52,518 nucleotides of DNA from Spirochaetia bacterium (GCA_007116075.1 SKJE01000054.1:1-52518), one strand, 5' to 3'. Shown: positions 1,702 to 52,518, counted from the stretch's first letter. Program-made: numbers and translations. The notes: generated by a model from the letters alone, not told the origin.

Positions 1702-3633
1702 ATGAGAACAGTACTGAGAATGCTTCATGAAGCTTCAGAGAAATACCCGGAACGGGCGTATACAACAAAAAAAGGCGATGATGGATGGATCAACTGGACC
1801 TTCCCCAGAACCGATGCTGAATCAGATACCATTGCAGCTGCGCTGCTGGACATCGGTATCGGACATGGTTCAACGGTTTCCATCCTTTCTGAGGGAAGAC
1901 CGGAATGGGTGATCGGTGAATACGGTGTGCTTAAGGCAGCCGCACTATCCGTACCCCTGTCCATCAAGCTCTCCCCGGAGGAGATTGCCTTTCGGATAGA
2001 CCACTCGGAAAGTAAAGCATTTTTTGCTTCATCCAATACGATAGCTAAAGTTGCCGAAGCGTGGAACCATATGGAGCACAAACCGGTCATGCTCTACCTG
2101 GATGAAGACGATTCCCGAATGGAGCAGACAATCTCTGAACTGAAACTGGTCAGGGGAAAGACCCTCTACACCTGGAAGGATCTCATAGACAGAGGGACTG
2201 AGAAACTGGCTAAAGAACCAACTCTCATCAGTGATCTGGAACCGACCATAGACGAACAGGATGTGGTGAATATCTGCTACACATCGGGCACCACAGGGTA
2301 TCCCAAGGGAATCATGCTCACCCACCTCAACTACTGGACCAATGCCCAGGATGCAGTGACTTTGTGCAATATTCCCGATGGAGAGTTTGAGACGCTGATC
2401 ATGCTCCCCCTCGATCACTCCTTCGCCCATACTGTAGGGCTCTATGCGTCACTGCTGCGGGGCATAACCATGCACTTTGTTGACGCCCGGGGCAGTAACA
2501 GTGCCATTATCAGGAACATCCCGAAAAACCTGACAGAGACAAACCCATCATACCTGATGACTGTTCCCGCCCTGTCCGGGAATTTTATGAAGAAGATCAT
2601 CAGCGGAGTAGCCCAGAAGGGAGCATTCATTAACGGCATATTCCAGTCAGGCATACGGGCAGGGATCAGGCTCAACGGAGACGGCTTCAATCCTGTGCCC
2701 CTCGGAACACGTCTGAAAAGCTATTTCCCCTACTGGCTTGCATCAGTCCTTGTATTTCCAAAGATCAGGAAGATTTTCGGGGATCGCATTCAGTTCTGTA
2801 TTGGCGGGGGAGCTCTTTTGGAGATCAAGCAGCAGCAGTTTTTCGCAGCCCTGGGAGTACCTATCTACCAGGGATACGGCTTGACCGAAGCAGCACCGAT
2901 CATCTGCAGTAACTCTGCAGATACACATAAATTCGGCACTTCTGGTATGGTTGCACCATCTATTACCTGCAAAATCATGAAAAGTGAATCTGAGGAGGCT
3001 GTCATCGGCGAACGCGGTGAGATCGTCATCAAGGGCGGCAACGTCATGAAGGGCTATTTCAAGAATCCCGAGGCTTCCAGGGAGGCTCTTCGTGACGGCT
3101 GGCTGTGGACCGGTGATTTGGGGTATATCGATCAGGACGGGTTTCTGGTGGTAACCGGGAGGGCTAAGGCGCTGCTCATCGCTCCGGATGGAGAGAAGTA
3201 CTCCCCCGAGGAGGTCGAGGAAGCGGTAATAAACAACTCCCGGTTCATCAACCAGATCATGGTCTATAACGACCACAAAGTATTCACCTCCGCGCTGATC
3301 ACCCTGCAGACAGAACATCTCAAGCAGGCCATCACTGAAGGGGATATGAAGACCGCCCGCCAGGTCCTGGAACTTGTTGAGAAGGACCTGCTGTCCTTCA
3401 AGGAGCGGGAACCCGGCAGAATTCCCCTGCAGTGGGTACCTGCAGCATTCGAAATCATTCCGAAGGATTTTTCCGAAGAGGATAAGCTTATCAACTCAAC
3501 CATGAAGCTGGTGCGTCACAAAGTTACCGATCTCTACCAGGAGAGAATCAACAGCATGTATGAGGATAAGAACACCCTCAATGAGCGCAACCTTAAGGCC
3601 ATTGAGGAGCTTTTTTCACTCCCCACGGAATAG
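1702..3633 (+). CDS. AMP-dependent synthetase / long-chain-fatty-acid--CoA ligase
   Basis: 643-aa ORF with the AMP-binding signature YTSGTTGYPKGIMLTH, plus GYGLTE and WLWTGDLGYIDQDGFLVVTGRAK blocks. RBS AAAGGGG lies before the ATG. Confidence 0.85.
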   Translation: MRTVLRMLHEASEKYPERAYTTKKGDDGWINWTFPRTDAESDTIAAALLDIGIGHGSTVSILSEGRPEWVIGEYGVLKAAALSVPLSIKLSPEEIAFRIDHSESKAFFASSNTIAKVAEAWNHMEHKPVMLYLDEDDSRMEQTISELKLVRGKTLYTWKDLIDRGTEKLAKEPTLISDLEPTIDEQDVVNICYTSGTTGYPKGIMLTHLNYWTNAQDAVTLCNIPDGEFETLIMLPLDHSFAHTVGLYASLLRGITMHFVDARGSNSAIIRNIPKNLTETNPSYLMTVPALSGNFMKKIISGVAQKGAFINGIFQSGIRAGIRLNGDGFNPVPLGTRLKSYFPYWLASVLVFPKIRKIFGDRIQFCIGGGALLEIKQQQFFAALGVPIYQGYGLTEAAPIICSNSADTHKFGTSGMVAPSITCKIMKSESEEAVIGERGEIVIKGGNVMKGYFKNPEASREALRDGWLWTGDLGYIDQDGFLVVTGRAKALLIAPDGEKYSPEEVEEAVINNSRFINQIMVYNDHKVFTSALITLQTEHLKQAITEGDMKTARQVLELVEKDLLSFKEREPGRIPLQWVPAAFEIIPKDFSEEDKLINSTMKLVRHKVTDLYQERINSMYEDKNTLNERNLKAIEELFSLPTE

Positions 3634-3647
3634 AAGCGTAACAAGCT

Positions 3648-3681
3648 GAGGCCGTAATCCAAAAAAAAAGATTACGGCCTC
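3648..3681. terminator. hairpin between convergent genes (possible bidirectional terminator)
   Basis: Perfect 12-bp stem GAGGCCGTAATC / GATTACGGCCTC around a CAAAAAAAAA loop, between the stop at 3633 (+) and the stop at 3696 (-). There are no flanking U-tracts, so function is uncertain. Confidence 0.45.
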
Positions 3682-3695
3682 AATCACCACTGTTT

Positions 3696-4643
3696 TTACA
3701 GTTTCGGGTGAAGCTGCTCTTCAAGCCAACTGACTATCTGACGTTCCACGCCTTCCAGTCTCCTCTCGAAGGATTCCTGGGTCCGATATCCGATATGGGG
3801 TGTAACGATAACCTGATCAAATTCAAGAAGCCGGTGATCCTTCTCCATGTTCGTCTTTTCCTTGGTATCAATCCCGGCTCCTGCAATGCATCCTTCCTTC
3901 AGAGCCCTGATGAGCCCCTCCATCTCAATGACAGATCCACGACCCACATTTATGACAAAGGCAGAGGGCTTCATTGTCGAAAGCAGTTCATAGGTGACCA
4001 TCCCTTCAGTCTCTTCTGTCAGGGGGCAATGGATGGAGAGTATGTCAGACTCCCGAAAGAGCTGCTCCAGCTTCACATAGGTCACCCCCGCCTGGTACGC
4101 CTCCCCACTGGGAGTGAGATCATAGGCGATCACCCTGCAGCCGAAGGTATTGACAATCCTTGCTACGGTCACCCCCACGTCTCCAAGACCGATAATACCG
4201 ATTGTCCTGCCGTGAAGTTCCTGACCCAGATAGGGCAGATCATGGAGGCCGGTCCTCATGGCATTATTAGCAATAATCATGGAACGTAGCAGGCTGATCA
4301 TCATGGCTACAGCCAGCTCAGCCACCGCAAAGGCTGAGTACCCTCTAATCTGGGCAACCCTGATACCCCGGTTACTGCAGGTCTCAAGATCAACATGATC
4401 CTGACTTGAAAAGGCTACCACCAGCAGTTTCAGATGTTTTGTCTTCTCTATGACTGCCTGAGTTACCGGGAGGTCAGTGATCACTACCACGTCAGCCTCC
4501 CTTATTCTCAGTGCTGTCTCCTTCTGCGTACCCGGTCGATCAGTATAATAGATGAATTGATGTCCCAGCTGTTCAAACCGCTTTTTGAGCCCCTCCACCA
4601 TATCATAAGAGACAGACAGGGGCTCTGCACATACTATGTTCAT
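3696..4643 (-). CDS. D-isomer-specific 2-hydroxyacid dehydrogenase (glycerate/phosphoglycerate dehydrogenase-like)
   Basis: NAD-binding motif GIIGLGDVGVTVAR and a C-terminal TPHIGYRT block. I chose the start at ATG 4643 (MNIVCAEP...) because GGAGGTG lies 5 nt upstream. The track ORF extends to 4712 without an RBS. Confidence 0.85.
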   Translation of the reverse strand: MNIVCAEPLSVSYDMVEGLKKRFEQLGHQFIYYTDRPGTQKETALRIREADVVVITDLPVTQAVIEKTKHLKLLVVAFSSQDHVDLETCSNRGIRVAQIRGYSAFAVAELAVAMMISLLRSMIIANNAMRTGLHDLPYLGQELHGRTIGIIGLGDVGVTVARIVNTFGCRVIAYDLTPSGEAYQAGVTYVKLEQLFRESDILSIHCPLTEETEGMVTYELLSTMKPSAFVINVGRGSVIEMEGLIRALKEGCIAGAGIDTKEKTNMEKDHRLLEFDQVIVTPHIGYRTQESFERRLEGVERQIVSWLEEQLHPKL

Positions 4644-9285: not shown

Positions 9286-10464
9286 CTACTCTTTCACCAG
9301 CATCATGTCGATGGGATAGTCATACAGCGGTTCATACCCGTCGTCGGTCATATAGATTGATGCATCGATCTCAAACCCCACGTTTTCATACCAGATGCCC
9401 GGTATCAGGTGTATGGCCATGTTGGGAACCAGAATGGTCTTGTCCCCGGGACGGAAACTGATGGTGTGCTCACCCCAGTCCGGCGGATAATTCACACCGA
9501 TGGAGTACCCGAGGCGGGACTCCTTCACAATGGTGGAGTGGCTGATGGCTTCTCTCCATTTCGCCTCCACCTCCTCTGCGGTGACCCCCGGCCTGATCCA
9601 GTCCAGGGTTGCCTGAAGCCCCTCAGTGACGATATCTGCAGTCTCCTGCATAAGCTTAGGAGGGTTTTCACCAAGGAATATGGTTCGTGCAATGGGAGCA
9701 TGGTAGTGCTTGTAGACCCCGCTCAGCTCAAGGAGCACCGCCTCATCCTTTACAAAGGGTGTATCACTCCATGTCAGGTGGGGTGTTTTGGTGGCTTCTC
9801 CCGCCATAATCAGGGGAACAATGGCAGGGTAATCTCCTCCGTACTGTTCAGTTCCCGCATACTGGGCCTGTACAATCCGGGCAGCGGCATCGCATTCCCG
9901 TACTCCCGGCTTGATGCTGTTCTTCGCTGCATCCATAACCTTTACGGCAATCTGACCGGCCCGTTTCATCATCTCGATCTCCTGGTCGGATTTCACCACC
10001 CGGATCCAGTTCACCAGGGCATTTGCATCAACAAAACTGGCGTTGGGCAGGCTCTTCTCAAGCTCAACATAGGAGCGATGGGTGAAATAAAACTGGTCCA
10101 TCTCCACCCCGATGGTCTTACTCCCCCAGCGCCGTTCTTTGATGAGGCCCGCCACGAAGTGCATGGGATGCTTCACCAGTGACTGGACGTAATCATCGGC
10201 ATACTCAAAGATATGCTCATCATCAAGATAGCTGGTGATCCTGGCACCGTTGGCATCCATTCCCCGGCCGATCCAGAGCGGCTGTTCCTCTTCCAGGGAG
10301 ATCACAAGACACTGATGCACGTAGAAACTCCAACCGTCATACCCGGTCAGGTAATTCATATTCGCCGGATGGCTGATAATAAGCAGATCCATTCCCTTTT
10401 CCTGCATGGACTGCTTTGTTTTCTTAACCCGCTCCATATATTCCTGTTTTGTGAAGACTGACAT
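9286..10464 (-). CDS. M24 (creatinase/prolidase-fold) hydrolase, ectoine-hydrolase (DoeA/EutD)-like, paralog 1
   Basis: 392 aa, same architecture as 6101-7270. RBS GAAGGAGG. Placed between the EutA-like and EutB-like genes. Confidence 0.7.
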   Translation of the reverse strand: MSVFTKQEYMERVKKTKQSMQEKGMDLLIISHPANMNYLTGYDGWSFYVHQCLVISLEEEQPLWIGRGMDANGARITSYLDDEHIFEYADDYVQSLVKHPMHFVAGLIKERRWGSKTIGVEMDQFYFTHRSYVELEKSLPNASFVDANALVNWIRVVKSDQEIEMMKRAGQIAVKVMDAAKNSIKPGVRECDAAARIVQAQYAGTEQYGGDYPAIVPLIMAGEATKTPHLTWSDTPFVKDEAVLLELSGVYKHYHAPIARTIFLGENPPKLMQETADIVTEGLQATLDWIRPGVTAEEVEAKWREAISHSTIVKESRLGYSIGVNYPPDWGEHTISFRPGDKTILVPNMAIHLIPGIWYENVGFEIDASIYMTDDGYEPLYDYPIDMMLVKE

Positions 10465-10492
10465 GAAAAACCTCCTTCAATACTCACATATA

Positions 10493-11230
10493 CTACATAA
10501 ATCCGGAAAACCGGCGCTTAACCACCGCCGAATAAACAAAATCAATCATAGTCACAAAGTCAAACACCGGCAAGCCAACCGCCTCCTGAACTGCAGCTCC
10601 GTAGGGAGGAAGCAGGCTGCATTCCAGCAGGATTGCCCTGACCTCCGGATAATCCCTGGATAGATCCACAGCGCGCTGCACCACCGCAGCTTCCACAAGA
10701 TCCGTATCCAGTTCGCCCAGCTCTCTCACTACCGCATCAGTAAAATGATCATGATCCTCCAGGCCGCGAATCCGCAGGGCGGGAAGCAGCTCTTCCGGCA
10801 CACCGGCTCCGTGAAACAGCTCAGGGGTCAGTGAATGCTTATTGGCGGTAATCACACCGATCTCCCTATTTCTGCCGATGATCTGGCTGATAAAGGGGAT
10901 CTGCATTAAACTTGAAAGAAACACGGGAATTCCGGCATTCCGGGCTATCTGCTGCTGGTATATCGCCATAAAGCCGCAGTCTCCCGTCACTGCCCGAACT
11001 CCCTCCCGCTGGAGAGCGGCCACCGCTTCGGTAACCGCATCCAGGAGTTCCATATCATGGCGGAAAATCCGTTCCACCGTAAATCCTTCCACCCGCTGGA
11101 ACCTTACCGGATAGGAGTAGGTTGTGGCATTTGCCACGTCACCGGGTATGAAGGGGGCATAATTCTCCAATAGGACAATACCGATTGCCTCACCGTAGCT
11201 GACCTGTCCCACTTTCACCCGATACCGCAT
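10493..11230 (-). CDS. Asp/Glu/hydantoin racemase (arylmalonate decarboxylase) family protein, EutA-like
   Basis: 245 aa with two Cys-containing blocks (TGDCGFM and LLECSLLPPY) at the spacing typical of this fold. RBS AAGGGGGAG. Confidence 0.7.
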   Translation of the reverse strand: MRYRVKVGQVSYGEAIGIVLLENYAPFIPGDVANATTYSYPVRFQRVEGFTVERIFRHDMELLDAVTEAVAALQREGVRAVTGDCGFMAIYQQQIARNAGIPVFLSSLMQIPFISQIIGRNREIGVITANKHSLTPELFHGAGVPEELLPALRIRGLEDHDHFTDAVVRELGELDTDLVEAAVVQRAVDLSRDYPEVRAILLECSLLPPYGAAVQEAVGLPVFDFVTMIDFVYSAVVKRRFSGFM

Positions 11231-15622: not shown

Positions 15623-16639
15623 CTACACCAAATTCCTCTTTATTAACGTTTCGGCGATCTGCACTGCATTGAGGGCAGCCCCCTTGCGGACGTTATTTGA
15701 AACGCACCAGAGGTTGATGCCCGTCTCAATGGTGAGATCCTCCCGGATCCGGCCGACCATCGTAAGATCTTCATCATTGCTCATAAAAGGCGTAGGATAC
15801 TCTTCTTGAGCTGGATTATCGATCACCTTGATCCCTTCAGCCCGGGAAAGCATATCCCTCACCTCGTCTGCTGAGATTTTTTTCTCAGTCTCGATATTGA
15901 TAGACTCGGAGTGACCGTACCAGACTGGAATCCTGACACAGGTAGCAGATACCTCGATATCCGGGGAGAGCATTTTCTTGGTCTCGTTGACCATTTTATA
16001 CTCCTCCTTGGTATATCCAGCTTCCTCGAACACATCAATATGGGGAATAGCGTTAAATGCGATCTGCTGGTTGTAGACCCGGGGAGCAGATACCTTTCCG
16101 TCCCGAAGCATTTCCCTCGCCTCTTCATCGAGCCCCAAAATGCCTTTCTGACCGGAACCGGACACTGCCTGGTATGTGGATACCACCACCCGCTTAATCT
16201 TAGCCGCATCATGGATCGGCTTGAGCGCCACCAGCATCTGGGTGGTAGAGCAGTTGGGATTGGCAATAATTCCCTTGTGCCAGTCAAGATCCTGGGGATT
16301 TACCTCGGGAACCACCAGCGGACAGTCCGGGTCCATACGCCAATGTGAACTGTTATCCACCACAATGGCTCCCTCCTCTACGGCAACGGGGGCCAGCACC
16401 TTGCTGGCATCCCCGCCTGCGGAGAAGATCGCAATATCGACTCCTGTAAAGGCTCCCTTCTTTGCCTCCTGCACTTCCCACTCTTTTCTCTGGAACGTGA
16501 CTTGCTTGCCGACCTGGGATGCTACATCCAAGGGCACCAAGGTGCCAACGGGAAATGACCGGCGCTCCAGGGTAGATATCATTTCTGTACCGACAACCCC
16601 AAGCGCACCAACCACTGCAACAGTATACGTCTTAGCCAT
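15623..16639 (-). CDS. asd: aspartate-semialdehyde dehydrogenase (phosphorylating)
   Basis: N-terminal VAVVGALGVVG Rossmann motif and active-site block IIANPNCSTTQM. ATG at 16639 is preceded by AGGGGGAAG. The track start at 16645 is GTG. Confidence 0.9.
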   Translation of the reverse strand: MAKTYTVAVVGALGVVGTEMISTLERRSFPVGTLVPLDVASQVGKQVTFQRKEWEVQEAKKGAFTGVDIAIFSAGGDASKVLAPVAVEEGAIVVDNSSHWRMDPDCPLVVPEVNPQDLDWHKGIIANPNCSTTQMLVALKPIHDAAKIKRVVVSTYQAVSGSGQKGILGLDEEAREMLRDGKVSAPRVYNQQIAFNAIPHIDVFEEAGYTKEEYKMVNETKKMLSPDIEVSATCVRIPVWYGHSESINIETEKKISADEVRDMLSRAEGIKVIDNPAQEEYPTPFMSNDEDLTMVGRIREDLTIETGINLWCVSNNVRKGAALNAVQIAETLIKRNLV

Positions 16640-16651
16640 CTTCACTTCCCC

Positions 16652-18034
16652 CTAAGCAAGCTTTCCGTCTTCCAGGTCCTTTATCACTCCTGCAAGAATA
16701 TCAATACCCTTCATCAACAGCTCTTCGGTGATGACTAATGGCGGAAGCATTCTTGCCACGTTATTGTGGTGTCCGCCGACCTCAATCATGACTCCCCGCT
16801 GGTGTGCATATTTCCGGACCTTCTTGGCCAGATCTGCAGAGGGTTTCTTTGTCTTCTTGTCCTCCACCATTTCAAGGCCCATCATGAGTCCGATGCCCCT
16901 GGCTTCACCAAGGATCTTTGAGGATTTCTCAAGTTCCTTCAGCTTTACCATGGCCTTCTTCCCCAGTTCAGCTGCCCGCTCGGGCACCTTGTTGTCAACC
17001 ATCCAGTTGATCGCTGTAGATCCGGCAGCAAATGCCACCATATTGCCCCGGAAGGTTCCGATGGTTTTTCCCGGCGGCCATGTGTTCAGTTCCTCCCGAT
17101 ATGCAATAGCAGAGATGGGAAATCCGATTCCTCCGAGGGCCTTGCTCATGGTGACAATATCGGGAACGATGCCGGCATGTTCAAAGGCAAACATCTTACC
17201 GGTCCTGCCGAGGCCTGCCTGGATTTCATCACAGATCATCAGCACACCGTGCTTCTCGGTAATTTCACGAACTCTCTGGAGAAACCGCGGTGAAGGAATA
17301 ATTGTTCCGCCCTCACCCTGGACCGACTCCAGAATGACTGCCGCAGGTTTTGAGAATCCTGAGTGGGAGTCCTCAAGGATTCGTTCAAGATAGTCCGCTG
17401 CCTGGTCTCCTACCTGCTCATCGGGACACCCGAAGGGGTTTCGGTAGGTATAGGGAAAGGGGATAAACTGGATGCCCGGCACCAGGGGTCCAAGTCCGTC
17501 CCGGTGACTGCTGTCGGTGGTCAGGGCAAGAGCCGCCCCGGTCATACCGTGATATGCTCCTTCAAAAGCTATAATGCCGAAGCGCTGGGTATTGAACTTC
17601 GCCAGCTTCAGGGCCTGTTCTACAGCGTCTGAACCGGTAGGACCGCCGAAAAAAATCCGGCTGAGCTCCTTGGGAAGCACGCTCCTGAGGGTTTTCACCA
17701 TCCGCTGCCTGGTCTCTGTCGGTATATCCAGCGAGTGGGTCACCTTGTCTATCTGCTCATGGGATGCCTTCAGCACATCAGGATGTCCATGACCGACAGC
17801 CATGACACCGGCTCCCGCAAAGAAATCTATATAGACATTCCCATCCACATCCTCCAGGGTTGCTCCCTTGCCCCGGGCGATAGCCATAGGCATGCCGCGG
17901 GAATAGGAAACCACTGAACTTTCGGTTTCGGCCTGGTACTTCAGGATTTCCTGAGACTTCGGTCCCGGCGGTACAGTCTTGATAATCGGTGCACCTGGGA
18001 TTGACAGTTCTTCAAACATCTTCTCTCTGTCCAT
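16652..18034 (-). CDS. class-III PLP aminotransferase (diaminobutyrate/4-aminobutyrate--2-oxoglutarate transaminase-like, DoeD/EctB-like)
   Basis: 460 aa with CDEIQAGLGRTGKMFAFEHAGIVPDIVTMSKALGG (PLP lysine) and GGPTGSDAVE blocks. RBS TAAGGAGAG. Confidence 0.85.
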   Translation of the reverse strand: MDREKMFEELSIPGAPIIKTVPPGPKSQEILKYQAETESSVVSYSRGMPMAIARGKGATLEDVDGNVYIDFFAGAGVMAVGHGHPDVLKASHEQIDKVTHSLDIPTETRQRMVKTLRSVLPKELSRIFFGGPTGSDAVEQALKLAKFNTQRFGIIAFEGAYHGMTGAALALTTDSSHRDGLGPLVPGIQFIPFPYTYRNPFGCPDEQVGDQAADYLERILEDSHSGFSKPAAVILESVQGEGGTIIPSPRFLQRVREITEKHGVLMICDEIQAGLGRTGKMFAFEHAGIVPDIVTMSKALGGIGFPISAIAYREELNTWPPGKTIGTFRGNMVAFAAGSTAINWMVDNKVPERAAELGKKAMVKLKELEKSSKILGEARGIGLMMGLEMVEDKKTKKPSADLAKKVRKYAHQRGVMIEVGGHHNNVARMLPPLVITEELLMKGIDILAGVIKDLEDGKLA

Positions 18035-18883: not shown

Positions 18884-18964
18884 ATGTTTATTCTTTTACG
18901 AAAATGAGTAAATGTCAAGGATTTTTTGTAACTTTTTATGACTTAATATATCTCTACGCGGATT

Positions 18965-22779: not shown

Positions 22780-22847
22780 ATCATCCGCCTCCTCTTGTCA
22801 TCTCTTGCATGACCGGTACAAGATATACTATCATGGGGTACAAAAAG

Positions 22848-23624
22848 ATGAAACGTGCAATTATTATCGGAGGAGGGGTCGGACCTATGGCCGGCACTGA
22901 CCTCCACAGGCAGATTATCCTCAATACCAGGACCGACGGGACTGACCAGGATCATATTGATGTGGTGCATCTTTCCTATGCATCAAGAATCTCTGATCGT
23001 ACGAAGTTTCTGCTGCATACCGTAGAAGATCATCCCGGACTGGCCATGGCGGATGTTATTATCGGCGGTGCAGAGTTTGTTGCCCGGCAGGGCCAGAAAG
23101 CAGTTGCTGGGGTTCCCTGCAACACCTTCCATGCCCCGGAAATTTTTCAGCCCTACAGGGAGGAACTGCAGCGACGCAGCCCCGAGACTGATGTTGCACA
23201 TATGCTGGAGGAGACTGCCCGCTATCTCAAGGAACATGTACCCGGCATCAGGAACATCGGGCTGCTTTCAACCACCGGTACAAGAAACAGCCGGGTCTGG
23301 CATACCCAAATGGAACAGTACGGCATAACGATTACCGAGATACCGGAAGAGCTGCAGCCGCGTCTCCATGAGAACATCTATCATCCTCTGTGGGGCATAA
23401 AAGCACTCAGCAAGGCAGGTGAGCGAGTCAGAACAGATTTTGACAGTTTCTGTCAGATGCTGCTGGAAGAAAAAGTCCAGGCCATTCTGCTGGGCTGCAC
23501 CGAATTGCCCATGATATTCCCTGTACCGGAGTATCTTGGCGTTCCCCTAATTGATCCCATGGTACCCCTTGCGCGGTCACTTGTCCGCATGGCGAGTCCG
23601 AACCAGCTGCTGCCCCTTGCCTGA
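22848..23624 (+). CDS. aspartate racemase family protein (two-Cys Asp/Glu racemase fold)
   Basis: MKRAIIIGGGVGPMAG N-terminus and both catalytic Cys blocks (GVPCNTFHAP and LLGCTELP). Start is uncertain; the track ORF begins at 22809. Confidence 0.75.
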   Translation: MKRAIIIGGGVGPMAGTDLHRQIILNTRTDGTDQDHIDVVHLSYASRISDRTKFLLHTVEDHPGLAMADVIIGGAEFVARQGQKAVAGVPCNTFHAPEIFQPYREELQRRSPETDVAHMLEETARYLKEHVPGIRNIGLLSTTGTRNSRVWHTQMEQYGITITEIPEELQPRLHENIYHPLWGIKALSKAGERVRTDFDSFCQMLLEEKVQAILLGCTELPMIFPVPEYLGVPLIDPMVPLARSLVRMASPNQLLPLA

Positions 23625-39620: not shown

Positions 39621-41672
39621 CTAATTACGCTGTTCCAGCAGCGAGAGAAATGTCTGTTCGTCAACAATCTCGGCACCGAGTTCCCGAGCCTTCTCTAGTT
39701 TGCTTCCCGCCTTCTTTCCCGCCAGCAGGTGGGTCACCTGCTTCGACACCGCCGAGACAACCTTCCCTCCCTGCTGTTCAATAAGCTCTTCAGCACGGGT
39801 TCGCGGCGTAAAGGCCTCAAAGCTGCCGGTGACGCACCATGTCTGAGCAGTGAAGATCCCAGAAGCAGATTCCCTCCGGCTCTGGGAGAACTGGAGTCCT
39901 GATTGGCTCAGCCTCCGGATCCGCTTAACCATCTCCGGATTCCGGAGAGCCTCTCCCAGGGATGCGGCCATGGAGACTCCAAAGCCCTTAATCTCACACA
40001 GCTGCTGTTCCTCGTGCCGTTGGGCCAGGTCAAGCAGGAGCTCAATATCACCGTATCCGTGATTTACCAGCAGCTGGGACGCTTTTTTCCCGATCTCCCC
40101 AATTCCCAGGGATGCGAGCACCTGAACAAAGGGTCTCTCCTTGCTCTTCTCTATTGATGCTGTTACGGCATTTATTTTCTTCTCACCAAACCCGGCTACT
40201 CCAGAGAGCACCCGGTCATAGGGCAGCTCATAGAGATCAGCGGTATCCTTCAGCACCCCGAGTTCAATGAGGGTCCTGATGGTCTCCGGACCCACCCCGT
40301 CTATATCCATCTGCTGACGGGCACAGAAAAACCTGATCCGTCCAAATACCTGGTCGGGACATGCCGGGTTTGGACAGAAATGGTGGGCTCCCCGCTGTTC
40401 AAGAAAGGCGGAGCAGGAGGGACACTGCTTCGGGAGCTCCCAGTGGGGGGCTGCATCGGGCTGTTTATCAATGACCCGCTCAACCGCGGGGATCACATCT
40501 CCCCGTTTGGAGATCGCCACCCGGTCTCCCTCTGCAGCTTCCAGCACCCTGATATAATCCTGGTTGTGTAAAGTGACATTGGAAACCACTGAACCGCCGA
40601 TCTGCACTGGCTCCACCCGCGCTACGGGAGTCACCCGACCGGTACGCCCGATCTGCACTTCTATTGCATTGATCACCGTCTCAGCCTCGGGAGACTCAAA
40701 TTTGAAAGCCAGGGCCCATCGGGGATGATGTCCCGTATAGCCCAGCTGCTCCCGCACGTCAAGCTCATTTACCTTGAACACCAGACCGTCAATTTCATAG
40801 TCCCGCTGGCTCCGGGCTTCCGTCAGCTCCCGGATATACTCCTCCATCTTCCCGGTGTCGAGACGGCTCCAATGGGAAAATCCCTGATCATCCCATTCAC
40901 GGCGGCTCACCGGCTCTTGGGAGAACAGCGCAATATAACGGCTCAGGGGCAGACCGAGCCGGGAAAGATACCTGAGCATCTCGTCATGGGTGTCCAGGGC
41001 AAATCCTTCCGGATACCCTTCGTAGACGCAGAGCTGCAGGGGAACCCGGGCGGTCTCGCTGCTCTTGACCCGTCTCAGGGAACCTGCGGCAAGGTTCCTC
41101 GGATTTGCATAGACCGTTTCCCCCTCCCGGGCAATCTTCTCAAAGTCGCTTTTAGCAAGGAATATCTCTCCGCGTACCGCAATAGTGACCGGTTCAGTCA
41201 GCCTGAGGGGGACTTGACGGATGGTCCTTACATTCCCCGTGACATCATTGCCCGCAAACCCGTTGCCCCGGGTCACCGCCCGGTCAAGCACTCCCTCCCG
41301 GTAATAGAGCACAATAGCCGCTCCGTCAATTTTTTCCTCCGCGGCAAAGGAGAGGTGTCTCCCTGCCCTTCGGGCAGTCCTGTCCATCCACCCCTGGAGA
41401 TCAGGAAGGCTGTAGGCTTTATCAAGGCTGAGTACCGGTATGGTGTGCTCTGTTTCCGGCAGTTCACCGGAGAGGTCAGATCCGACCCTGAGGGAGGGAG
41501 AATCGCTTCTTTTCAGCTCCGGATGGGCTTGTTCAAGTTCAATCAGCCGGTCAAAGAGCCGATCATACTCCCGGTCACTCACCAGGGATGTTTGTTCAAC
41601 ATAGTAGGCGTGCTGGAGACGCTGCAGGTCACGTACCAGCCGATCATATTCCTGTTCCAGGTATTCACTCAT
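39621..41672 (-). CDS. ligA: NAD-dependent DNA ligase
   Basis: 683 aa with adenylation motif EEKIDGAA, a Zn-finger Cys cluster (CPSC...CPNPAC), HhH and a C-terminal BRCT (WCVTGSF...). RBS GGGAGGAG. Confidence 0.95.
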   Translation of the reverse strand: MSEYLEQEYDRLVRDLQRLQHAYYVEQTSLVSDREYDRLFDRLIELEQAHPELKRSDSPSLRVGSDLSGELPETEHTIPVLSLDKAYSLPDLQGWMDRTARRAGRHLSFAAEEKIDGAAIVLYYREGVLDRAVTRGNGFAGNDVTGNVRTIRQVPLRLTEPVTIAVRGEIFLAKSDFEKIAREGETVYANPRNLAAGSLRRVKSSETARVPLQLCVYEGYPEGFALDTHDEMLRYLSRLGLPLSRYIALFSQEPVSRREWDDQGFSHWSRLDTGKMEEYIRELTEARSQRDYEIDGLVFKVNELDVREQLGYTGHHPRWALAFKFESPEAETVINAIEVQIGRTGRVTPVARVEPVQIGGSVVSNVTLHNQDYIRVLEAAEGDRVAISKRGDVIPAVERVIDKQPDAAPHWELPKQCPSCSAFLEQRGAHHFCPNPACPDQVFGRIRFFCARQQMDIDGVGPETIRTLIELGVLKDTADLYELPYDRVLSGVAGFGEKKINAVTASIEKSKERPFVQVLASLGIGEIGKKASQLLVNHGYGDIELLLDLAQRHEEQQLCEIKGFGVSMAASLGEALRNPEMVKRIRRLSQSGLQFSQSRRESASGIFTAQTWCVTGSFEAFTPRTRAEELIEQQGGKVVSAVSKQVTHLLAGKKAGSKLEKARELGAEIVDEQTFLSLLEQRN

Positions 41673-41744
41673 ATTCTGACTCCTCCCTGTCTATTGTACT
41701 CTATTTTATTGCAGTTTCAATCCTATACATGGTACGCTGTATGC

Positions 41745-43724
41745 ATGGCACAAAAGTCACGTTACATCAGCGGCATGTACCGGCCGAATATGCTCTACGG
41801 AACGATTATCCGCTCCCCCATCAACCGGGGAAGGATTACCTCTATCGATATTCCCCCTATGGGGGATGATGTGGTGGTGGTCAGGGCATCGGATATCCCC
41901 GGGTCCAATGGGCTGAGGATTCTCAAGGAAACCCTGCCGCTGCTCACTGGAGAAACAATTCATTATCTCGGCCAGCCGATCCTTGCGGTCTTTGCTCCCA
42001 CCTTGGAGGATGCAAAGGTACACGCCTCGTCCGTGGCCATCCAGTTTGACACCATCCCTCCGGATATGGAGGACCGGGGTATCTTCACCGACAGAACGGT
42101 AACTCATGGCGACATTGACAAAGCCCTTATGGACCATCCCCGGGTCGTTGAACGCTCCTACCTGACGAGAGAGCTAGAGAGCAGCTACACAGCACCAACC
42201 GGTGCGCTCTCCTATCCTGAGGATGACCGTGTTATTATACATGCCTCAACCCAATGGCCCTTCCACGTCCGGGACAGCGTTGCTGAGGTCTGCGGGCTCC
42301 AGAAGCGCAGGATTTCGGTCTACACAACTCCCTACTCACCAAACTACGGTGAGAAGCTGGTATATCCGTCTATGTATGCATGCCTGACAGCCCTGGCATC
42401 CATCAAGTCAGGACGCCCTGCCCGCCTGATTTCCCGGTTCCCGGCCCTCAGTCCCCGGATCACCGTCTTAAGGAAAACCGCACTGGATGAATCCGGGATT
42501 CCCTGTGCCGAGGATATCCTGGTCACCGCTGATGTGGGTGCATATCCGCTTTTTGCCGAAGAGATAACCGAACACCTGCGGTGCGGGGTAATGGGATATA
42601 TTCCTCTGGACCACTACCGGATCCGGGTTAAAACCCTCCACTCTCCCCACCCGCCCCGGTACCATTTTGACGGTTTCGGATACCCTTCAGCCCTCTTCAG
42701 TTCCGAAAGTCATATTTCGGAAATCTGCTATGACCAGGAGGTAAACCCTGCCCAGTGGCGGTTAAACCAGTACACATCACAGCAGCTGCACCTGCTCAAC
42801 GGCGCATCCATGGGAGAGACACCCCTGGAAGAGGTGATCCAGCGGGTAGTGAAGGAGTCAGCCTTCAACCGAAAGTTTGCAGTATGTAAGATTAACCAGG
42901 TGCAGCGCAGCAGTCACGCCTCCTTCAGAGGGTACCTGCGGGGCATCGGGATTGCCTCAGGATTTGCCCCGAACGGCTTCTCCAGAAACTATCCCTGGGA
43001 AAAACTGTATTCAGTCCAGGTCCGTCTGGATGAGAACAACCGCCTTTCCATCCATACCAGTCTCTGTAATTCCGGGGCTTCCTACACATGGCGCAGAACC
43101 TCCTCAGAAATACTTGGGATTCCCGAGGAGAATATCGAGGTAGTGTACGGCGGCACCAGGGAACTACCAAATTCCGGACCCCATATCCTCTCCCGGGATA
43201 TTTCGATTATTACTCCCCTGATCCGCCGATGCTGCGAATCCATCAAGAGTCAGCGGTTCAAGGAACCCCTGCCGATCATTGTAAAGCGGGGCTTCAAGGC
43301 GAAGAGCCATGAACCGATACAGGAGTTCCATCGATTCAAGCCCTTCACCACCGCCTGCTGGGGGGCGGTGGTGGTGGAGCTTGAAGTGGACAGTGTCTCC
43401 TTTATGCCGGAATTCAGGGGTATCTGGTGTGCAATCGACTGCGGGAGACTCTTCAACGAGGAGGTCCTCAGAAACAATCTGCGTACCAAACTCCTGAAAA
43501 TCCTCCATCTCGCGGTAGGAGGGAGAATCACTCCCGACTACATGCCGAAAGTCGAAATTCAGTTTGTCGACCGGGGCAGTTCCGTACCGCTGTCAGGCAG
43601 CCAGGTGCTGGTGGGCCTATTCTATGCAGCCTTCACCTCAGCCCTCTCCCAGGCTTTAGACCGCTCCATCACGGAGCTTCCCATCACTCCCCCGGACATC
43701 CTGGCACAACTGGAGGATCTATGA
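41745..43724 (+). CDS. xanthine dehydrogenase/aldehyde oxidase family molybdopterin-subunit homolog, apparently degenerate
   Basis: About 659 aa. The N-terminal a/b-hammerhead-like region (LYGTIIRSPINRGRITSIDIPPMG...IHYLGQPILAVFAPTLEDA) and overall collinearity with the family are clear. The canonical GGGFGGK and GxGE motifs are not visible. Real start is ATG 41745; upstream, the 999-aa track ORF is antisense to ligA. Confidence 0.7.
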   Translation: MAQKSRYISGMYRPNMLYGTIIRSPINRGRITSIDIPPMGDDVVVVRASDIPGSNGLRILKETLPLLTGETIHYLGQPILAVFAPTLEDAKVHASSVAIQFDTIPPDMEDRGIFTDRTVTHGDIDKALMDHPRVVERSYLTRELESSYTAPTGALSYPEDDRVIIHASTQWPFHVRDSVAEVCGLQKRRISVYTTPYSPNYGEKLVYPSMYACLTALASIKSGRPARLISRFPALSPRITVLRKTALDESGIPCAEDILVTADVGAYPLFAEEITEHLRCGVMGYIPLDHYRIRVKTLHSPHPPRYHFDGFGYPSALFSSESHISEICYDQEVNPAQWRLNQYTSQQLHLLNGASMGETPLEEVIQRVVKESAFNRKFAVCKINQVQRSSHASFRGYLRGIGIASGFAPNGFSRNYPWEKLYSVQVRLDENNRLSIHTSLCNSGASYTWRRTSSEILGIPEENIEVVYGGTRELPNSGPHILSRDISIITPLIRRCCESIKSQRFKEPLPIIVKRGFKAKSHEPIQEFHRFKPFTTACWGAVVVELEVDSVSFMPEFRGIWCAIDCGRLFNEEVLRNNLRTKLLKILHLAVGGRITPDYMPKVEIQFVDRGSSVPLSGSQVLVGLFYAAFTSALSQALDRSITELPITPPDILAQLEDL

Positions 43725-44209
43725 ACATTACCTGTACCATCAACGGAAAACAGGCAGTATACCAGGTCTCCTCGGATATGCCCCTGCTCGACCTGCTTAT
43801 CGACAACGCCCATATCACATCACTGCGGCCGGGATGCCGGAAGGGACACTGCGGCAGCTGTATCGTGCTCATTGATGACCGGCCGGCCCTTTCCTGCCTG
43901 GTCCCTGTATTCGACATCCGGGGCAGAGATATCATCACCTTTGAACGGTTCCAGCGAACCCGGGACTCCACGGATATCAGGAAGGGTTTTGAGCAGGCGG
44001 AGGCGGTTCCCTGTTCCTACTGCTACCCATCAAAGACCCTTATCACCCACGGAATCATCAGCAGAAACGTAAATCCGGAACCCGATGAGATCCTGGCAGC
44101 CTTTGCCCTCCATGCATGCACCTGTCTCGAACCGGACCAGGTAGTCCGGGGTGTACTCCAGGCAGGGTCCTATCGGGGTCGAAGGAGGAAGTATGCCCGC
44201 AGTAAATAG
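43721..44209 (+). CDS. [2Fe-2S]-binding small subunit of a xanthine-dehydrogenase-family enzyme
   Basis: 162 aa with both cluster signatures: C-x4-C-x2-C-x11-C (CRKGHCGSCIVLIDDRPALSC) and C-x2-C-x31-C-x-C (CSYC...CTC). ATGA overlap with the upstream gene. RBS TGGAGGA. Confidence 0.85.
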   Translation: MNITCTINGKQAVYQVSSDMPLLDLLIDNAHITSLRPGCRKGHCGSCIVLIDDRPALSCLVPVFDIRGRDIITFERFQRTRDSTDIRKGFEQAEAVPCSYCYPSKTLITHGIISRNVNPEPDEILAAFALHACTCLEPDQVVRGVLQAGSYRGRRRKYARSK

Positions 44210-45077
44210 ATCCCCGGTTGTCTACACTCCTTCAACCGTATCGGAACTTCTTGAGCTCAGGACCCGCATGCCCCAGGCAACCATCTGGGCAGGGGGAACG
44301 GCACTCATGAGCCGCTACTATTTCTATCCCTACCCCCTCTCCCGTGATATCATCTCCCTGGGAAAGGTTGCGGAGCTCTCCCGGATTACCCGGACCGAGC
44401 GCTACCTCGATATCGGCTCCACCGCCACTATTGAACAGATCCTTACCGTGGGGCACCACATTCTCCCACCCCTGCTTGCCAGGGCACTGAGACAGATAGG
44501 GCCGCCCACCCTCACCTCCCGGGCAACAATCGGGGGAAATCTCTGCATACCTGATCTTCGACTCAACCTGAGTGCTTCTCTCTCCCTTTTTCAGGTGCAG
44601 GTGGAACTCCGGGGGGGCAAGCGCTTCGGCCAGCAGAGCAGATGGATCCCCCTCAACCGGCTCTACCAGAAGGAAGGGGGGCTTCTGATCCAAGACCATG
44701 AAGTGCTTACCCGCATCCGCATCACCTTCGATGAAGGAGACTTCCAGCAGTTTCAGCAGATCGGATTTCCCTACCGCTACCCCGAAGAGGCGGTGCTCTT
44801 CTCTCTCTTTGCCCGGCACAGTCAGTCCTCGGTATCGGACTACCGGCTAGCATTCACCTTTCCCCGTATCGGGATTTTCCGGGACCGGGACATTGAGTCG
44901 GCTGTGACCAACCAGAGCCTTCCACTGATGCACGGAGATATTGCTGAGATCTCTGATCTGCTGCGCAGGAGCCTCCATCATTTCAGCTCCAGGATTGCAC
45001 CGATCCAGTACGCCCGCTCAATCCGCGCCTTTGAACGATCCCTGACCCTGCTGAATACCAGAAGCGTCTCCCGGTAA
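44193..45077 (+). CDS. FAD-binding (CoxM/XdhB-like) medium subunit of a xanthine-dehydrogenase-family enzyme
   Basis: About 294 aa with the IWAGGTALMS (AGGT-x-L) FAD motif and LDIGSTATIEQI. ATG at 44193 is preceded by GAAGGAGG. Overlaps the FeS gene by 17 nt. Confidence 0.75.
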   Translation: MPAVNRSPVVYTPSTVSELLELRTRMPQATIWAGGTALMSRYYFYPYPLSRDIISLGKVAELSRITRTERYLDIGSTATIEQILTVGHHILPPLLARALRQIGPPTLTSRATIGGNLCIPDLRLNLSASLSLFQVQVELRGGKRFGQQSRWIPLNRLYQKEGGLLIQDHEVLTRIRITFDEGDFQQFQQIGFPYRYPEEAVLFSLFARHSQSSVSDYRLAFTFPRIGIFRDRDIESAVTNQSLPLMHGDIAEISDLLRRSLHHFSSRIAPIQYARSIRAFERSLTLLNTRSVSR

Positions 45078-49206: not shown

Positions 49207-51279
49207 ATGTTTCTCAAGGAACTTAACCAGAGTATTACAACCCTGAAGGGAATTGGTGAACGCACCGCCGAGGCCTATGCCAAGCTCGGTATCAGGACAT
49301 GGTCTGACCTGCTCACCCACCTGCCGAGAAGTTATGAGGACAGGACGGTCACCAGGCCCTTTGCCAAGGGATATGACGGTTCTCCTGTGCTGACGGTTAT
49401 GGATGTGGTTGCCCATGAACAGATCAGGTATCGGAAAGGCTTTGCCCTGAAAGTCATTGTAAAAGACGATACCGGACCGGCTGCCCTGCTCTGCTACGGC
49501 AGGAACTTCCTGAAAAGCACCTTGGAAGTGGGAAGGAGATTGTATTTCTACGGCCAGGGGAAACTCCAGTATGGAGAGCTCCAGTTCAGCGCCTTTGAGA
49601 CCGCCCCCTGGGAGGAGGGAGTGCCTCCGCCGGCGGAGTTTTCCCGGATCCTGCCGGTATATCCCCTCACAGAGGGACTTACCCAGAGACGGCTCAGGAG
49701 GGATATTGCAGCACTGCTTCGAAGCAGTGCCCGCCACCTCAGTGAGGAGCTGCCCCAGGATATACGTTCCCGCCATGATCTCATGGGTATCACCCAGGCA
49801 GTCAAACGGATCCATTTCCCCCCTGACCTCAAGGCAATTGAACGTGCCCGGCACACCCTGGTCTTCGGGGAATTTTTCTACCTCAACCTCCTGATACGCC
49901 GACGGGCTCTGAAGCGAAAGGAGGAGCGCAGGAAGACTGTCACCTATCCCAGGGGACTCTATGAACGTCTGAAGCACGCTCTACCCTTCCCCCTCACCGA
50001 GGGACAGCAGAGAACCCTTGGTGAAATCCTGGAGGATCTGGAGGGAGATACCCCTGCGGCCCGGCTGATCCAAGGGGATGTCGGATCCGGAAAGACCCTC
50101 ACCGCCCTGCTTTCTGCTGTCGTGCTGATTGAAGCGGGCAGGCAGGCTGCATTCATGGTGCCCACGGAACTGCTTGCCAGGCAGCACGCAGAGGAGGCAG
50201 CCCGACTCCTGGAACCTTTAGGTATCAATACTGCGCTGCTCCATGGGGGACTGAAACCCTCTGAGCGGAAACTGCTTGTGAAGGCCCTCTCCTCAGGAGA
50301 TATAGACCTGCTCATCGGCACCCATGCCCTCTTCAGCAGGGATGTCTCCTTCCGGGATCTTGGACTGGTGATTATTGATGAACAGCACCGTTTCGGGGTG
50401 CTCCAGCGTGTCGCCCTGAGCAGGAAGGGATCCACCCCGGATATGCTCTATATGACCGCAACACCTATTCCCCGGACACTGACCATGACCGTTTTCGGGG
50501 ACCTGGACGTATCCACCATTGACACAATGCCTCCGGGAAGAAAGCCGGTGATCACCCATCTCGCATCAGAACAGAGCCGCATGCGGGTCTACCAGGCGGT
50601 CCGTCGGGAGCTCGAGCGGGGAAGACAGGCCTATTTTGTGTATCCCCGGATCGGCCAGGGAGTTGAGGAGGCCCTCAAGGATGCCACATCCATGTACCGG
50701 TACCTCACAGAAGAGGTGTATCCCGGCATGCCGGCAGGTCTGGTGCACTCCAAGGTTCCCCAGGATGAGCAGGAGCGGACCATGGCCGCCTTTAAAAAGG
50801 GATCAATCTTATATCTTGTGGCCACCAGCGTCGTTGAAGTCGGAGTCCATGTGCCCCATGCTACCTGTATGGTCATTGAGCACGCAGAACGGTTCGGTCT
50901 TTCAGCCCTGCACCAGCTGCGGGGGCGGGTCGGCAGGGGATCCGACCAGGCTTATGCCTTTTTCATCTACTCCCGGGAGCTGACCGACCAGGGAAAACAG
51001 CGACTGAAGGTCATGAAGGAGACAACCGACGGATTCCGGATAGCCGAAGAGGATTTGAAAATCCGGGGGCCCGGGGATATATCGGGAACCCGGCAGTCCG
51101 GATTCATCCAGCTCACCTTCGGCGATTTGGTAAGGGATCTCAAGGTGCTGCACACGACCCGCAAGGAGGCGGACCGAATCATTGATGAGGATCCTGGACT
51201 GCTCTCGCCGTCGTACTCGATCTGCCGGGAGGTGCTCGAACGATCGGCAGACTTTACTGAAGAGCTTTTTGACGGCTAG
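49207..51279 (+). CDS. recG: ATP-dependent DNA helicase RecG
   Basis: 690 aa with a wedge/OB N-domain, Walker A GDVGSGKT, DEQHRFG, and the QLRGRVGRG motif VI. Confidence 0.95.
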   Translation: MFLKELNQSITTLKGIGERTAEAYAKLGIRTWSDLLTHLPRSYEDRTVTRPFAKGYDGSPVLTVMDVVAHEQIRYRKGFALKVIVKDDTGPAALLCYGRNFLKSTLEVGRRLYFYGQGKLQYGELQFSAFETAPWEEGVPPPAEFSRILPVYPLTEGLTQRRLRRDIAALLRSSARHLSEELPQDIRSRHDLMGITQAVKRIHFPPDLKAIERARHTLVFGEFFYLNLLIRRRALKRKEERRKTVTYPRGLYERLKHALPFPLTEGQQRTLGEILEDLEGDTPAARLIQGDVGSGKTLTALLSAVVLIEAGRQAAFMVPTELLARQHAEEAARLLEPLGINTALLHGGLKPSERKLLVKALSSGDIDLLIGTHALFSRDVSFRDLGLVIIDEQHRFGVLQRVALSRKGSTPDMLYMTATPIPRTLTMTVFGDLDVSTIDTMPPGRKPVITHLASEQSRMRVYQAVRRELERGRQAYFVYPRIGQGVEEALKDATSMYRYLTEEVYPGMPAGLVHSKVPQDEQERTMAAFKKGSILYLVATSVVEVGVHVPHATCMVIEHAERFGLSALHQLRGRVGRGSDQAYAFFIYSRELTDQGKQRLKVMKETTDGFRIAEEDLKIRGPGDISGTRQSGFIQLTFGDLVRDLKVLHTTRKEADRIIDEDPGLLSPSYSICREVLERSADFTEELFDG

Positions 51280-52439: not shown

Positions 52440-52518
52440 GGCCGTTGATACTATCATAAACCCAGGCAAGATAAAACTGCACAGATTGATTTCCTCGACG
52501 CTTAAGGGTATGGTCACT

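Follow-up and report, generated by a model that had tools for sequence, protein, structure and literature searches.

A phosphorylating aspartate-semialdehyde dehydrogenase in a putative ectoine-breakdown operon of spirochaetes

What handles the semialdehyde of ectoine breakdown when no aldehyde dehydrogenase (ALDH) is encoded with the other genes of the pathway? The question is raised by a 52,518-nucleotide stretch of DNA from Spirochaetia bacterium (GCA_007116075.1 SKJE01000054.1:1-52518; the whole stretch is hereafter called the window), in which a gene for a transaminase of the L-2,4-diaminobutyrate (DABA) type is followed by one for a phosphorylating aspartate-semialdehyde dehydrogenase (Asd). 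Ectoine is among the most abundant microbial osmolytes. To our knowledge, aerobic Proteobacteria are the only organisms in which its breakdown has been elucidated; there the final step, catalysed by an irreversible ALDH, yields no ATP. This enzyme, DoeC or Ssd, is an ALDH resembling succinate-semialdehyde dehydrogenase (PMC5924519). The region analysed here appears to be an operon for the import and degradation of ectoine and 5-hydroxyectoine, from a spirochaete that is anaerobic and fermentative and is related to Sphaerochaetaceae/Pleomorphochaeta. We lean towards the view that Asd would be the semialdehyde-handling step of this operon, replacing DoeC.

The transaminase, Asd and amidohydrolase genes

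Coordinates are window positions, and all genes relevant to the question lie on the minus strand. The three central genes are:

18034-16652, minus strand: class-III aminotransferase of the DABA--2-oxoglutarate type (the DoeD/Atf role), open reading frame (ORF) of 460 amino acids
16639-15623, minus strand: phosphorylating Asd, B-type, ATG start, 338 amino acids
15617-14436, minus strand: M20 amidohydrolase (TIGR01891 score 345, cut-off 154)

The gene call on the source contig gives the transaminase 455 amino acids, with a start at 18019. The protein contains a Pfam Aminotran_3 domain (347 bits) and passes the NCBIfam model TIGR00709 'dat', which represents the DABA--2-oxoglutarate transaminase family (425.8 against a cut-off of 401.6); it stays under the cut-offs of the narrower models PRK06938 (463 against 671) and PRK06931. 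EctB (6RL5, 273 bits) is among its best relatives of known structure, the top one being a γ-aminobutyrate (GABA)-type enzyme. The mechanical ORF of Asd opens at a GTG at 16645, and the gene call and all close homologues favour the ATG at 16639. Asd consists of the Pfam domains Semialdhyde_dh and Semialdhyde_dhC, carries the active-site motif NPNCSTTQM, and scores above the curated cut-offs of TIGR01296 asd_B (445.5 against 324.2) and PRK14874 (474 against 223). Its best solved relative is V. cholerae Asd2 (2QZ9, 317 bits). The spacer between the transaminase and asd genes (TAG-GGGGAAGTGAAG-ATG) is 12 nt long and includes a purine-rich ribosome-binding stretch; the spacer between asd and the M20 gene (TAG-GTATC-ATG) is 5 nt long. 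A sequence-only reading of this DNA had described a DABA-type transaminase followed 12 nt on by a classical phosphorylating Asd, with the next gene 5 nt downstream. The family scores and the sequence bear out the gene assignments, and both spacings are exact.

The M20 protein scores 266 bits with the NCBIfam model for the M20-type deacetylase DoeB2 (NF038260), under the cut-off of 550, and its best solved relatives are YxeP and ILR1-like N-acyl-amino-acid hydrolases. The cluster contains no DoeB/EutE deacetylase of the succinylglutamate-desuccinylase/aspartoacylase type, and the M20 protein fills this slot. We propose that it may be the N-alpha-acetyl-DABA deacetylase, a non-homologous stand-in for DoeB/EutE. 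A second M20 amidohydrolase paralogue is encoded at the right end of the window (51276-52517, minus strand).

The search for an ALDH covered six-frame translations of the window and of 87 related loci, with ORFs of at least 200 amino acids compared to the PROSITE signatures PS00687 (Glu) and PS00070 (Cys). Neither the 52.5-kb window nor any of the 87 loci, searched up to 10 kb from asd, has such an ORF with both signatures. Three matches to a single signature, all in loci other than the window, lie in short unrelated frames and are spurious. On the source contig (82.9 kb), the gene calls at 2515-70610 (68 kb) lack an Aldedh domain, a second asd and any hom or dap gene. The earlier statement that no ALDH-superfamily gene occurs in the gene train around asd thus agrees with both the signature search and the Pfam-labelled gene calls. 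By the same signature search, no alternative semialdehyde-handling enzyme is encoded in any cluster of the 87 loci and the window.

Asd itself shows no sign of having changed its chemistry. Eight of its residues, which in the alignment to 2QZ9 cover catalysis, substrate binding and phosphate binding, are invariant in 81 of 81 aligned relatives: R101, N129, C130, Q157, E219, K222, R236 and H243. For the individual roles we assume the mapping to H. influenzae/E. coli numbering. Because all eight catalytic and binding residues are invariant, the cluster Asd is, by this measure, a normal phosphorylating Asd and not a diverged paralogue with a new reaction.

Residues 36-40 of Asd read PLDVA (window 16519-16533) and place Asp38 after the second β-strand. 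The motif PLD(I/V) occurs in all spirochaete B-type Asd, cluster and stand-alone copies alike (72 of the 81 aligned sequences; the same column in L008-L079), and is absent from the solved Asd structures among the aligned sequences inspected. V. cholerae Asd2 and Desulfovibrio-type relatives read ASxRS at this position, and we take the Arg of that motif to grip the 2'-phosphate of NADP. An acidic residue after the second β-strand is a classical mark of NAD preference. The motif therefore suggests that spirochaete B-type Asd, throughout the lineage, may prefer NAD(H) to NADP. We considered whether it could be a catabolic adaptation of the cluster copy, and ruled this out because it is present in all spirochaete B-type Asd, including those with dapA/dapB neighbours.

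The evidence that asd belongs with its two neighbours is strongest across species. One scan of species-representative genomes gave 80 loci, onto which the window proteins were mapped by tblastn. The closest source-named relatives of Asd are all from Spirochaetota (Sphaerochaetaceae, Pleomorphochaeta, Sediminispirochaeta and Alkalispirochaeta). In 63 of the 80 species loci, nearly all labelled Spirochaetota and with Asd identities from 83% to 61%, asd directly adjoins the transaminase gene, the M20 gene or both; we call these the cluster loci. Among the loci with room for the neighbour in question, 54 of 69 have the transaminase gene immediately upstream of asd, and 54 of 73 have the M20 gene immediately downstream of it. 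The median spacers are 19 nt (n=61) between transaminase and asd and 5 nt (n=57) between asd and M20. The remaining cluster is reshuffled: EutB, EutC and DoeA are inverted in Alkalispirochaeta-type loci, and aspartate kinase (Ask) is encoded at the cluster end, in the middle or upstream. The flanks also vary, with an OpuA-type transporter in the window as against metY, metA and serA-like genes in L002. Since it survives so much reshuffling, the transaminase-Asd-M20 triplet appears from these comparisons to be under selection as a unit. The view that asd functions as part of the catabolic operon, standing where DoeC would, had first been argued from the tight spacing; it is supported here, and the synteny argues for it more strongly than the spacing does.

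Metagenome-assembled genomes (MAGs) labelled Cloacimonadota, Alphaproteobacteria and Victivallales (L034, OY781061.1; L043, JBKEBO010000024.1; L053, JAIPJT010000010.1) contain asd genes that fall inside the spirochaete Asd clade, and in one of the three a 1.58-Mb chromosome carries a complete ectoine-type cluster. These cases could reflect mislabelling, mis-binning or gene transfer.

The gene train and its predicted substrate

The triplet is part of a train of 15 co-directional genes that runs from 18883 down to 3696, with gaps of 4-69 nt and one overlap of 11 nt. The train includes, in this order, genes for IclR, the transaminase, Asd, M20, DctP, DctQ, DctM, EutA, DoeA, EutB, EutC, a second DoeA, aspartate kinase and a D-2-hydroxyacid dehydrogenase. 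The layout is operon-like, and the genes are presumably co-transcribed. The features outside the triplet are:

18890-18918, minus strand: promoter-like site TTGACA-17-AAGAAT (10/12 matches), candidate operon promoter just upstream of IclR
18883-18065, minus strand: IclR-family regulator, first gene of the train (Pfam HTH_IclR and IclR_C)
14366-11252, minus strand: tripartite ATP-independent periplasmic (TRAP) transporter DctP/DctQ/DctM, UehABC/TeaABC-like (Pfam DctP, DctQ and DctM from gene calls)
11230-10493, minus strand: EutA-like protein, Asp/Glu-racemase-related, PRK07475 (NF005679 281, cut-off 231)
10464-9286, minus strand: DoeA/EutD ectoine hydrolase homologue, copy 1 (TIGR02993 464.7, under the cut-off of 613)
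9281-8277, minus strand: EutB-like pyridoxal phosphate-dependent dehydratase, hydroxyectoine branch (NF005680 389.9, just under the cut-off of 413)
8287-7286, minus strand: EutC-like cyclodeaminase-family protein (NF006141 420.3, cut-off 408)
7279-6101, minus strand: second DoeA/EutD-like M24 hydrolase, directly before ask (TIGR02993 375.7, under the cut-off of 613)
6066-4750, minus strand: aspartate kinase (TIGR00657 236, cut-off 208.7; PRK09034 413, under the cut-off of 434)
4712-3696, minus strand: D-2-hydroxyacid dehydrogenase family gene, last of the train (PGDH 206, glyoxylate reductase 195.5, all under cut-offs)

The only strong promoter-like site sits upstream of IclR. Promoter and terminator scans gave counts no higher than those in shuffled controls, and the site is hence weak evidence for a promoter. 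At the other end, the gene after the D-2-hydroxyacid dehydrogenase is convergent. A search of Rfam gave no RNA family for any part of the window. The regulator of the train belongs to the IclR family, no EnuR (MocR/GabR) or AsnC/DoeX regulator being present, and 46 of the 63 cluster loci have an IclR gene no more than 10 kb from asd.

Several independent proteins point to ectoine/5-hydroxyectoine as the probable substrate of the train. The best solved relatives of the TRAP binding protein are UehA (3FXB, 139 bits) and TeaA (2VPN, 127 bits), both of which are ectoine-binding proteins (PMC5924519). The first DoeA copy has the ectoine hydrolase DoeA (6TWK) as its best solved relative, with 368 bits over the full length. 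For the hydroxyectoine branch we count the EutA/EutB/EutC set as present, EutA and EutC scoring over their cut-offs and EutB marginally under. Because the equivalog models for DoeA and DoeB2 are matched under their cut-offs, we infer this substrate and do not consider it proven. The low DoeA, EutB and DoeB2 scores, together with the GABA-type top relative of the transaminase, would also suit some other imported N-acyl-diamino acid or cyclic amidine that ends in a four-carbon amino-aldehyde. We regard a different substrate as very improbable, given that the best solved relatives of the cluster proteins are the ectoine proteins DoeA, UehA and TeaA, that EutA and EutC clear their thresholds, and that the overall set of genes agrees with the Ueh-Eut clusters of PMC5924519. 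We likewise rejected a biosynthetic reading of transaminase, Asd and Ask, in which they would make DABA or ectoine, since the train lacks ectA and ectC yet encodes two hydrolases, a deacylase and an uptake system.

Two proteins of the train, the second DoeA-like hydrolase and the D-2-hydroxyacid dehydrogenase, have no role in the published pathway. Our guess for the dehydrogenase is a redox sink or a function in the hydroxyectoine branch.

The proposed direction of Asd and aspartate kinase

The proposed route would begin with entry of ectoine or hydroxyectoine through the UehA/TeaA-like TRAP system. DoeA-type hydrolases would open the ring, and the M20 amidohydrolase, in DoeB's place, would strip off the acetyl group as acetate. 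The class-III transaminase would then convert DABA and 2-oxoglutarate to L-aspartate-4-semialdehyde and glutamate. In place of the irreversible ALDH (DoeC/Ssd), Asd would turn the semialdehyde, phosphate and NAD(P)+ into 4-aspartyl-phosphate and NAD(P)H, and so would reversibly tie the ectoine-derived semialdehyde to the aspartate-family amino-acid pool. Aspartate kinase, running backwards, would convert aspartyl-phosphate and ADP to aspartate and ATP.

This direction is chemically unremarkable for Asd, which is routinely assayed with semialdehyde and phosphate. The Asd step is near equilibrium, like that of glyceraldehyde-3-phosphate dehydrogenase (GAPDH), and the aspartokinase equilibrium lies far toward aspartate and ATP. 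For these reasons the Asd-Ask pair would run downhill, yielding one ATP and one NAD(P)H, as against NADH only by the ALDH route. That ATP is in fact conserved on balance through Asd and Ask we put forward tentatively, and with more doubt than the assignment of Asd as the semialdehyde-handling step.

The ask gene at 6066-4750, which did not figure in the sequence-only reading, matters because its product would take up the product of Asd. It begins 34 nt after the second DoeA gene, on the same strand, and encodes a protein with the Pfam domains AA_kinase and ACT_9. In 29 of the 63 cluster loci, an ask of the window type is found no more than 10 kb from asd, in at least five different arrangements. 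The window-type Ask tracks the Asd tree, and it is only 30% identical to the Spirochaeta africana Ask whose gene is paired with an archaeal-type asd (asd_EA). A further enzyme that fits DABA breakdown is glutamate dehydrogenase, whose gene stands beside that of the transaminase in nine of the 63 cluster loci (NCBIfam NADP-specific type, 658 bits). In Alkalispirochaeta-type loci it lies between ask and the transaminase gene (L051 6995-8347, minus strand; L060 6925-8262, minus strand; L089 5517-6854). It would restore the 2-oxoglutarate used by the transaminase, and its position is consistent with such regeneration accompanied by the release of ammonia.

Is asd specialised for this operon, or is it the ordinary biosynthetic gene? 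At least eight genomes carry a further asd whose surroundings are biosynthetic. Two MAGs contain both a cluster and a stand-alone B-type asd (L052 and L076; L073 and L050). Two dapA genes and dapB surround the stand-alone copy in L076, and those in L050 and L063 come after an aspartate-aminotransferase-like gene. The archaeal-type asd_EA (TIGR00978, 448 bits) is found a few kb from the cluster in six GTDB species loci (L057, L060, L064, L065, L067 and L068; at 2706-3824, minus strand, in L060), and in a further assembly, L089, it lies at 10001-11098 beside hom-ask. Spirochaeta africana (L088), whose genome is complete, has an asd_EA directly followed by an ask of a different type; the neighbours are unrelated, and no ectoine-type genes are near the pair. 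In some lineages the asd_EA near the transaminase-Asd-M20 unit stands beside IclR and hom-ask, which raises the question of why two Asd classes share one neighbourhood.

Several points weigh against Asd as the catabolic semialdehyde-handling step. Stand-alone B-type Asd nest among the cluster copies in a neighbour-joining (NJ) tree; because of this intermixing we also rejected the idea that the cluster Asd split off early as a catabolic clade of its own. The MAGs with two copies may be chimeric: the L076 Asd is 91% identical to that of L051 and only 86% to that of its MAG partner L052. The source clade (21 species, one with a complete 2.79-Mb chromosome) yielded only the cluster B-type asd in the scan, whose search peptides do retrieve stand-alone asd copies elsewhere. 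Among the genomes of this clade are the MAG containing ERZ27301260 k141_244170, chromosome OY781923.1 and the isolate Pleomorphochaeta sp. DL1XJH-081 (NZ_JBMDYO01), which carries the cluster. An ask gene adjoins asd without any ectoine context in L043, L066 and L088 and comes after hom in L089, and since ask is found beside asd or hom in such settings, its linkage cannot fix the direction of the reaction; in L006 and L018, ask is missing from the cluster end. An ALDH may be encoded elsewhere in the genome, the search having covered the window, the 87 loci and 68 kb of the source contig. Finally, the scores of DoeA, EutB and DoeB2 are all under the NCBIfam equivalog cut-offs.

An ordinary, possibly sole, biosynthetic asd that converts aspartyl-phosphate to semialdehyde is an alternative reading, in which the ectoine genes were assembled around an ancestral asd...ask pair. 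It would explain why the tree mixes cluster copies of Asd with stand-alone ones, why both share the NAD-type PLD motif, why one B-type asd per source-clade genome was retrieved (complete chromosome included), and why asd-ask pairs occur without ectoine genes in the three loci named above; it also suits the metA and metY genes that adjoin the cluster in L002. The semialdehyde from ectoine would then either join the biosynthetic pool or be oxidised by an enzyme encoded elsewhere. We nevertheless judge both this origin of the cluster and this fate of the semialdehyde to be unlikely. It would be odd for an essential gene to be wedged between catabolic genes behind IclR, with spacers of 12 and 5 nt, and to be kept there in 63 species; the eight genomes with another asd have it in a clearly biosynthetic setting; and the clusters encode no other enzyme for the semialdehyde. 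Moreover, a flood of semialdehyde from the transaminase would reverse Asd by mass action, whatever its 'purpose'.

The same argument applies to the source organism, whose asd may also be a housekeeping gene that serves both directions. Because Asd is reversible and semialdehyde from the transaminase would drive it toward aspartyl-phosphate, the presence of a single asd leaves the catabolic role standing.

A further possibility is that the semialdehyde is mainly assimilated into homoserine, threonine, methionine and lysine, with Asd acting as an overflow valve and Ask giving no net ATP. A hom gene lies beside ask near the cluster in L089, metA and metY are neighbours in L002, and Bacillota clusters have been reported with a homoserine dehydrogenase gene (PMC13188858). 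Against this, the train and 68 kb of the contig contain no hom, dapA or thr genes, hom occurs in only three of the 63 cluster loci as compared to 29 for ask, and ectoine used as a carbon and nitrogen source would far outstrip the need for four amino acids. We therefore consider assimilation as the main fate improbable, and retain Asd in the catabolic direction as the reading that we favour.

Flanking genes, related systems and biological meaning

One transport system adjoins the train without being part of it:

22057-19070, minus strand: OpuA-type ABC importer comprising ATPase, permease and OpuAC binding protein (Pfam ABC_tran, BPD_transp_1 and OpuAC)

This importer lies directly upstream of IclR and has a choline/betaine-type binding protein (117 bits). 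It is not found at the corresponding position in L002-L028 and occurs there in the window's organism only; the relatives carry metY, metA, serA-like and AsnC genes at its position. It is probably a separate importer for compatible solutes. Just upstream of it is a separate gene of the Asp/Glu-racemase family (22809-23624, plus strand). Farther away, between ligA and dnaE, a three-gene set encodes a molybdenum hydroxylase (41744-45077, plus strand) with Ald_Xan_dh_C/MoCoBD, 2Fe-2S and FAD-binding components. The ORF of 999 amino acids at 40725-43724 exceeds the gene call of 659 amino acids because it runs through ligA antisense. About 7 kb to the left of the window (L090 5108-6280), a rubrerythrin/EncFtn-like gene is followed by a gene for an encapsulin (Linocin_M18) shell protein, beside feoAB; the two genes resemble an iron-storage nanocompartment pair. 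Nothing relevant to the cluster is encoded in the left flank of the source contig or in about 6 kb of its right flank.

The spirochaete train resembles the proteobacterial Doe/Eut systems in its putative UehA/TeaA-like TRAP uptake, its DoeA/EutD-like and EutA/B/C proteins, a DABA transaminase step, aspartate as the predicted end product, and the arrangement in what looks like one long operon (PMC5924519). It differs in apparently ending with a phosphorylating Asd (plus Ask) and not with the ALDH DoeC/Ssd, in having a putative M20 deacetylase, two DoeA paralogues and IclR in place of EnuR/AsnC, and in its host, an anaerobic spirochaete; in 2018, only Proteobacteria were reported to consume ectoine (PMC5924519). 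Putative ectoine clusters have since been described in Thermodesulfobacteriota and Bacillota (PMC13188858, Appl Environ Microbiol 2026). Like the spirochaete train, these are non-proteobacterial and co-directional, with 9-13 genes. Those of Thermodesulfobacteriota usually have two eutD copies and no eutE or ssd, their remaining genes being unlabelled. The Bacillota clusters share with ours an M20-like amidohydrolase ('abgB') and a gene of the aspartate pathway; unlike the spirochaete clusters, they keep an aldehyde dehydrogenase and a homoserine dehydrogenase (PMC13188858). That paper makes no mention of Asd, aspartate kinase or Spirochaetota.

Compared with the biosynthetic Ask-Asd pair, and with the Ask_Ect of ectoine biosynthetic clusters, the window proteins belong to the same families, use the same chemistry and retain every catalytic residue of Asd. 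The setting is different: a catabolic operon with its own transporter, no ectA or ectC nearby, and a proposed reaction in the opposite direction. GAPDH and phosphoglycerate kinase offer an analogy, in mechanism only, through a thiohemiacetal on a Cys residue, phosphorolysis to an acyl-phosphate and transfer to ADP. The logic of uptake, ring-opening and transamination is that of the known pathway; the differences lie in deacetylation (M20), in regulation (IclR) and, most of all, in the final step (Asd with Ask). Literature searches returned nothing on point for Asd in ectoine catabolism, for anaerobic fermentation of ectoine or for ectoine use by spirochaetes, and no paper that treats aspartate kinase as an enzyme of substrate-level phosphorylation. 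A search on the cofactor preference of Asd likewise brought no help.

ATP made at the substrate level matters to cultured Pleomorphochaeta and Sphaerochaeta, which ferment obligately. It is conceivable, if somewhat doubtful, that anaerobic spirochaetes ferment ectoine and hydroxyectoine and save energy by reversing the Asd-aspartate kinase pair. If so, the consumers of ectoine would extend to an anaerobic phylum, compatible solutes would be an energy source in anoxic saline habitats, and aspartate kinase would join the short list of enzymes of substrate-level phosphorylation, a testable case of a biosynthetic enzyme pair reversed for ATP. The Asd variant would also give a reason why clusters without ssd and eutE can still be complete. 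Such organisms will be missed by screens that make DoeB and DoeC, or EutE and Ssd, a condition for ectoine catabolism.

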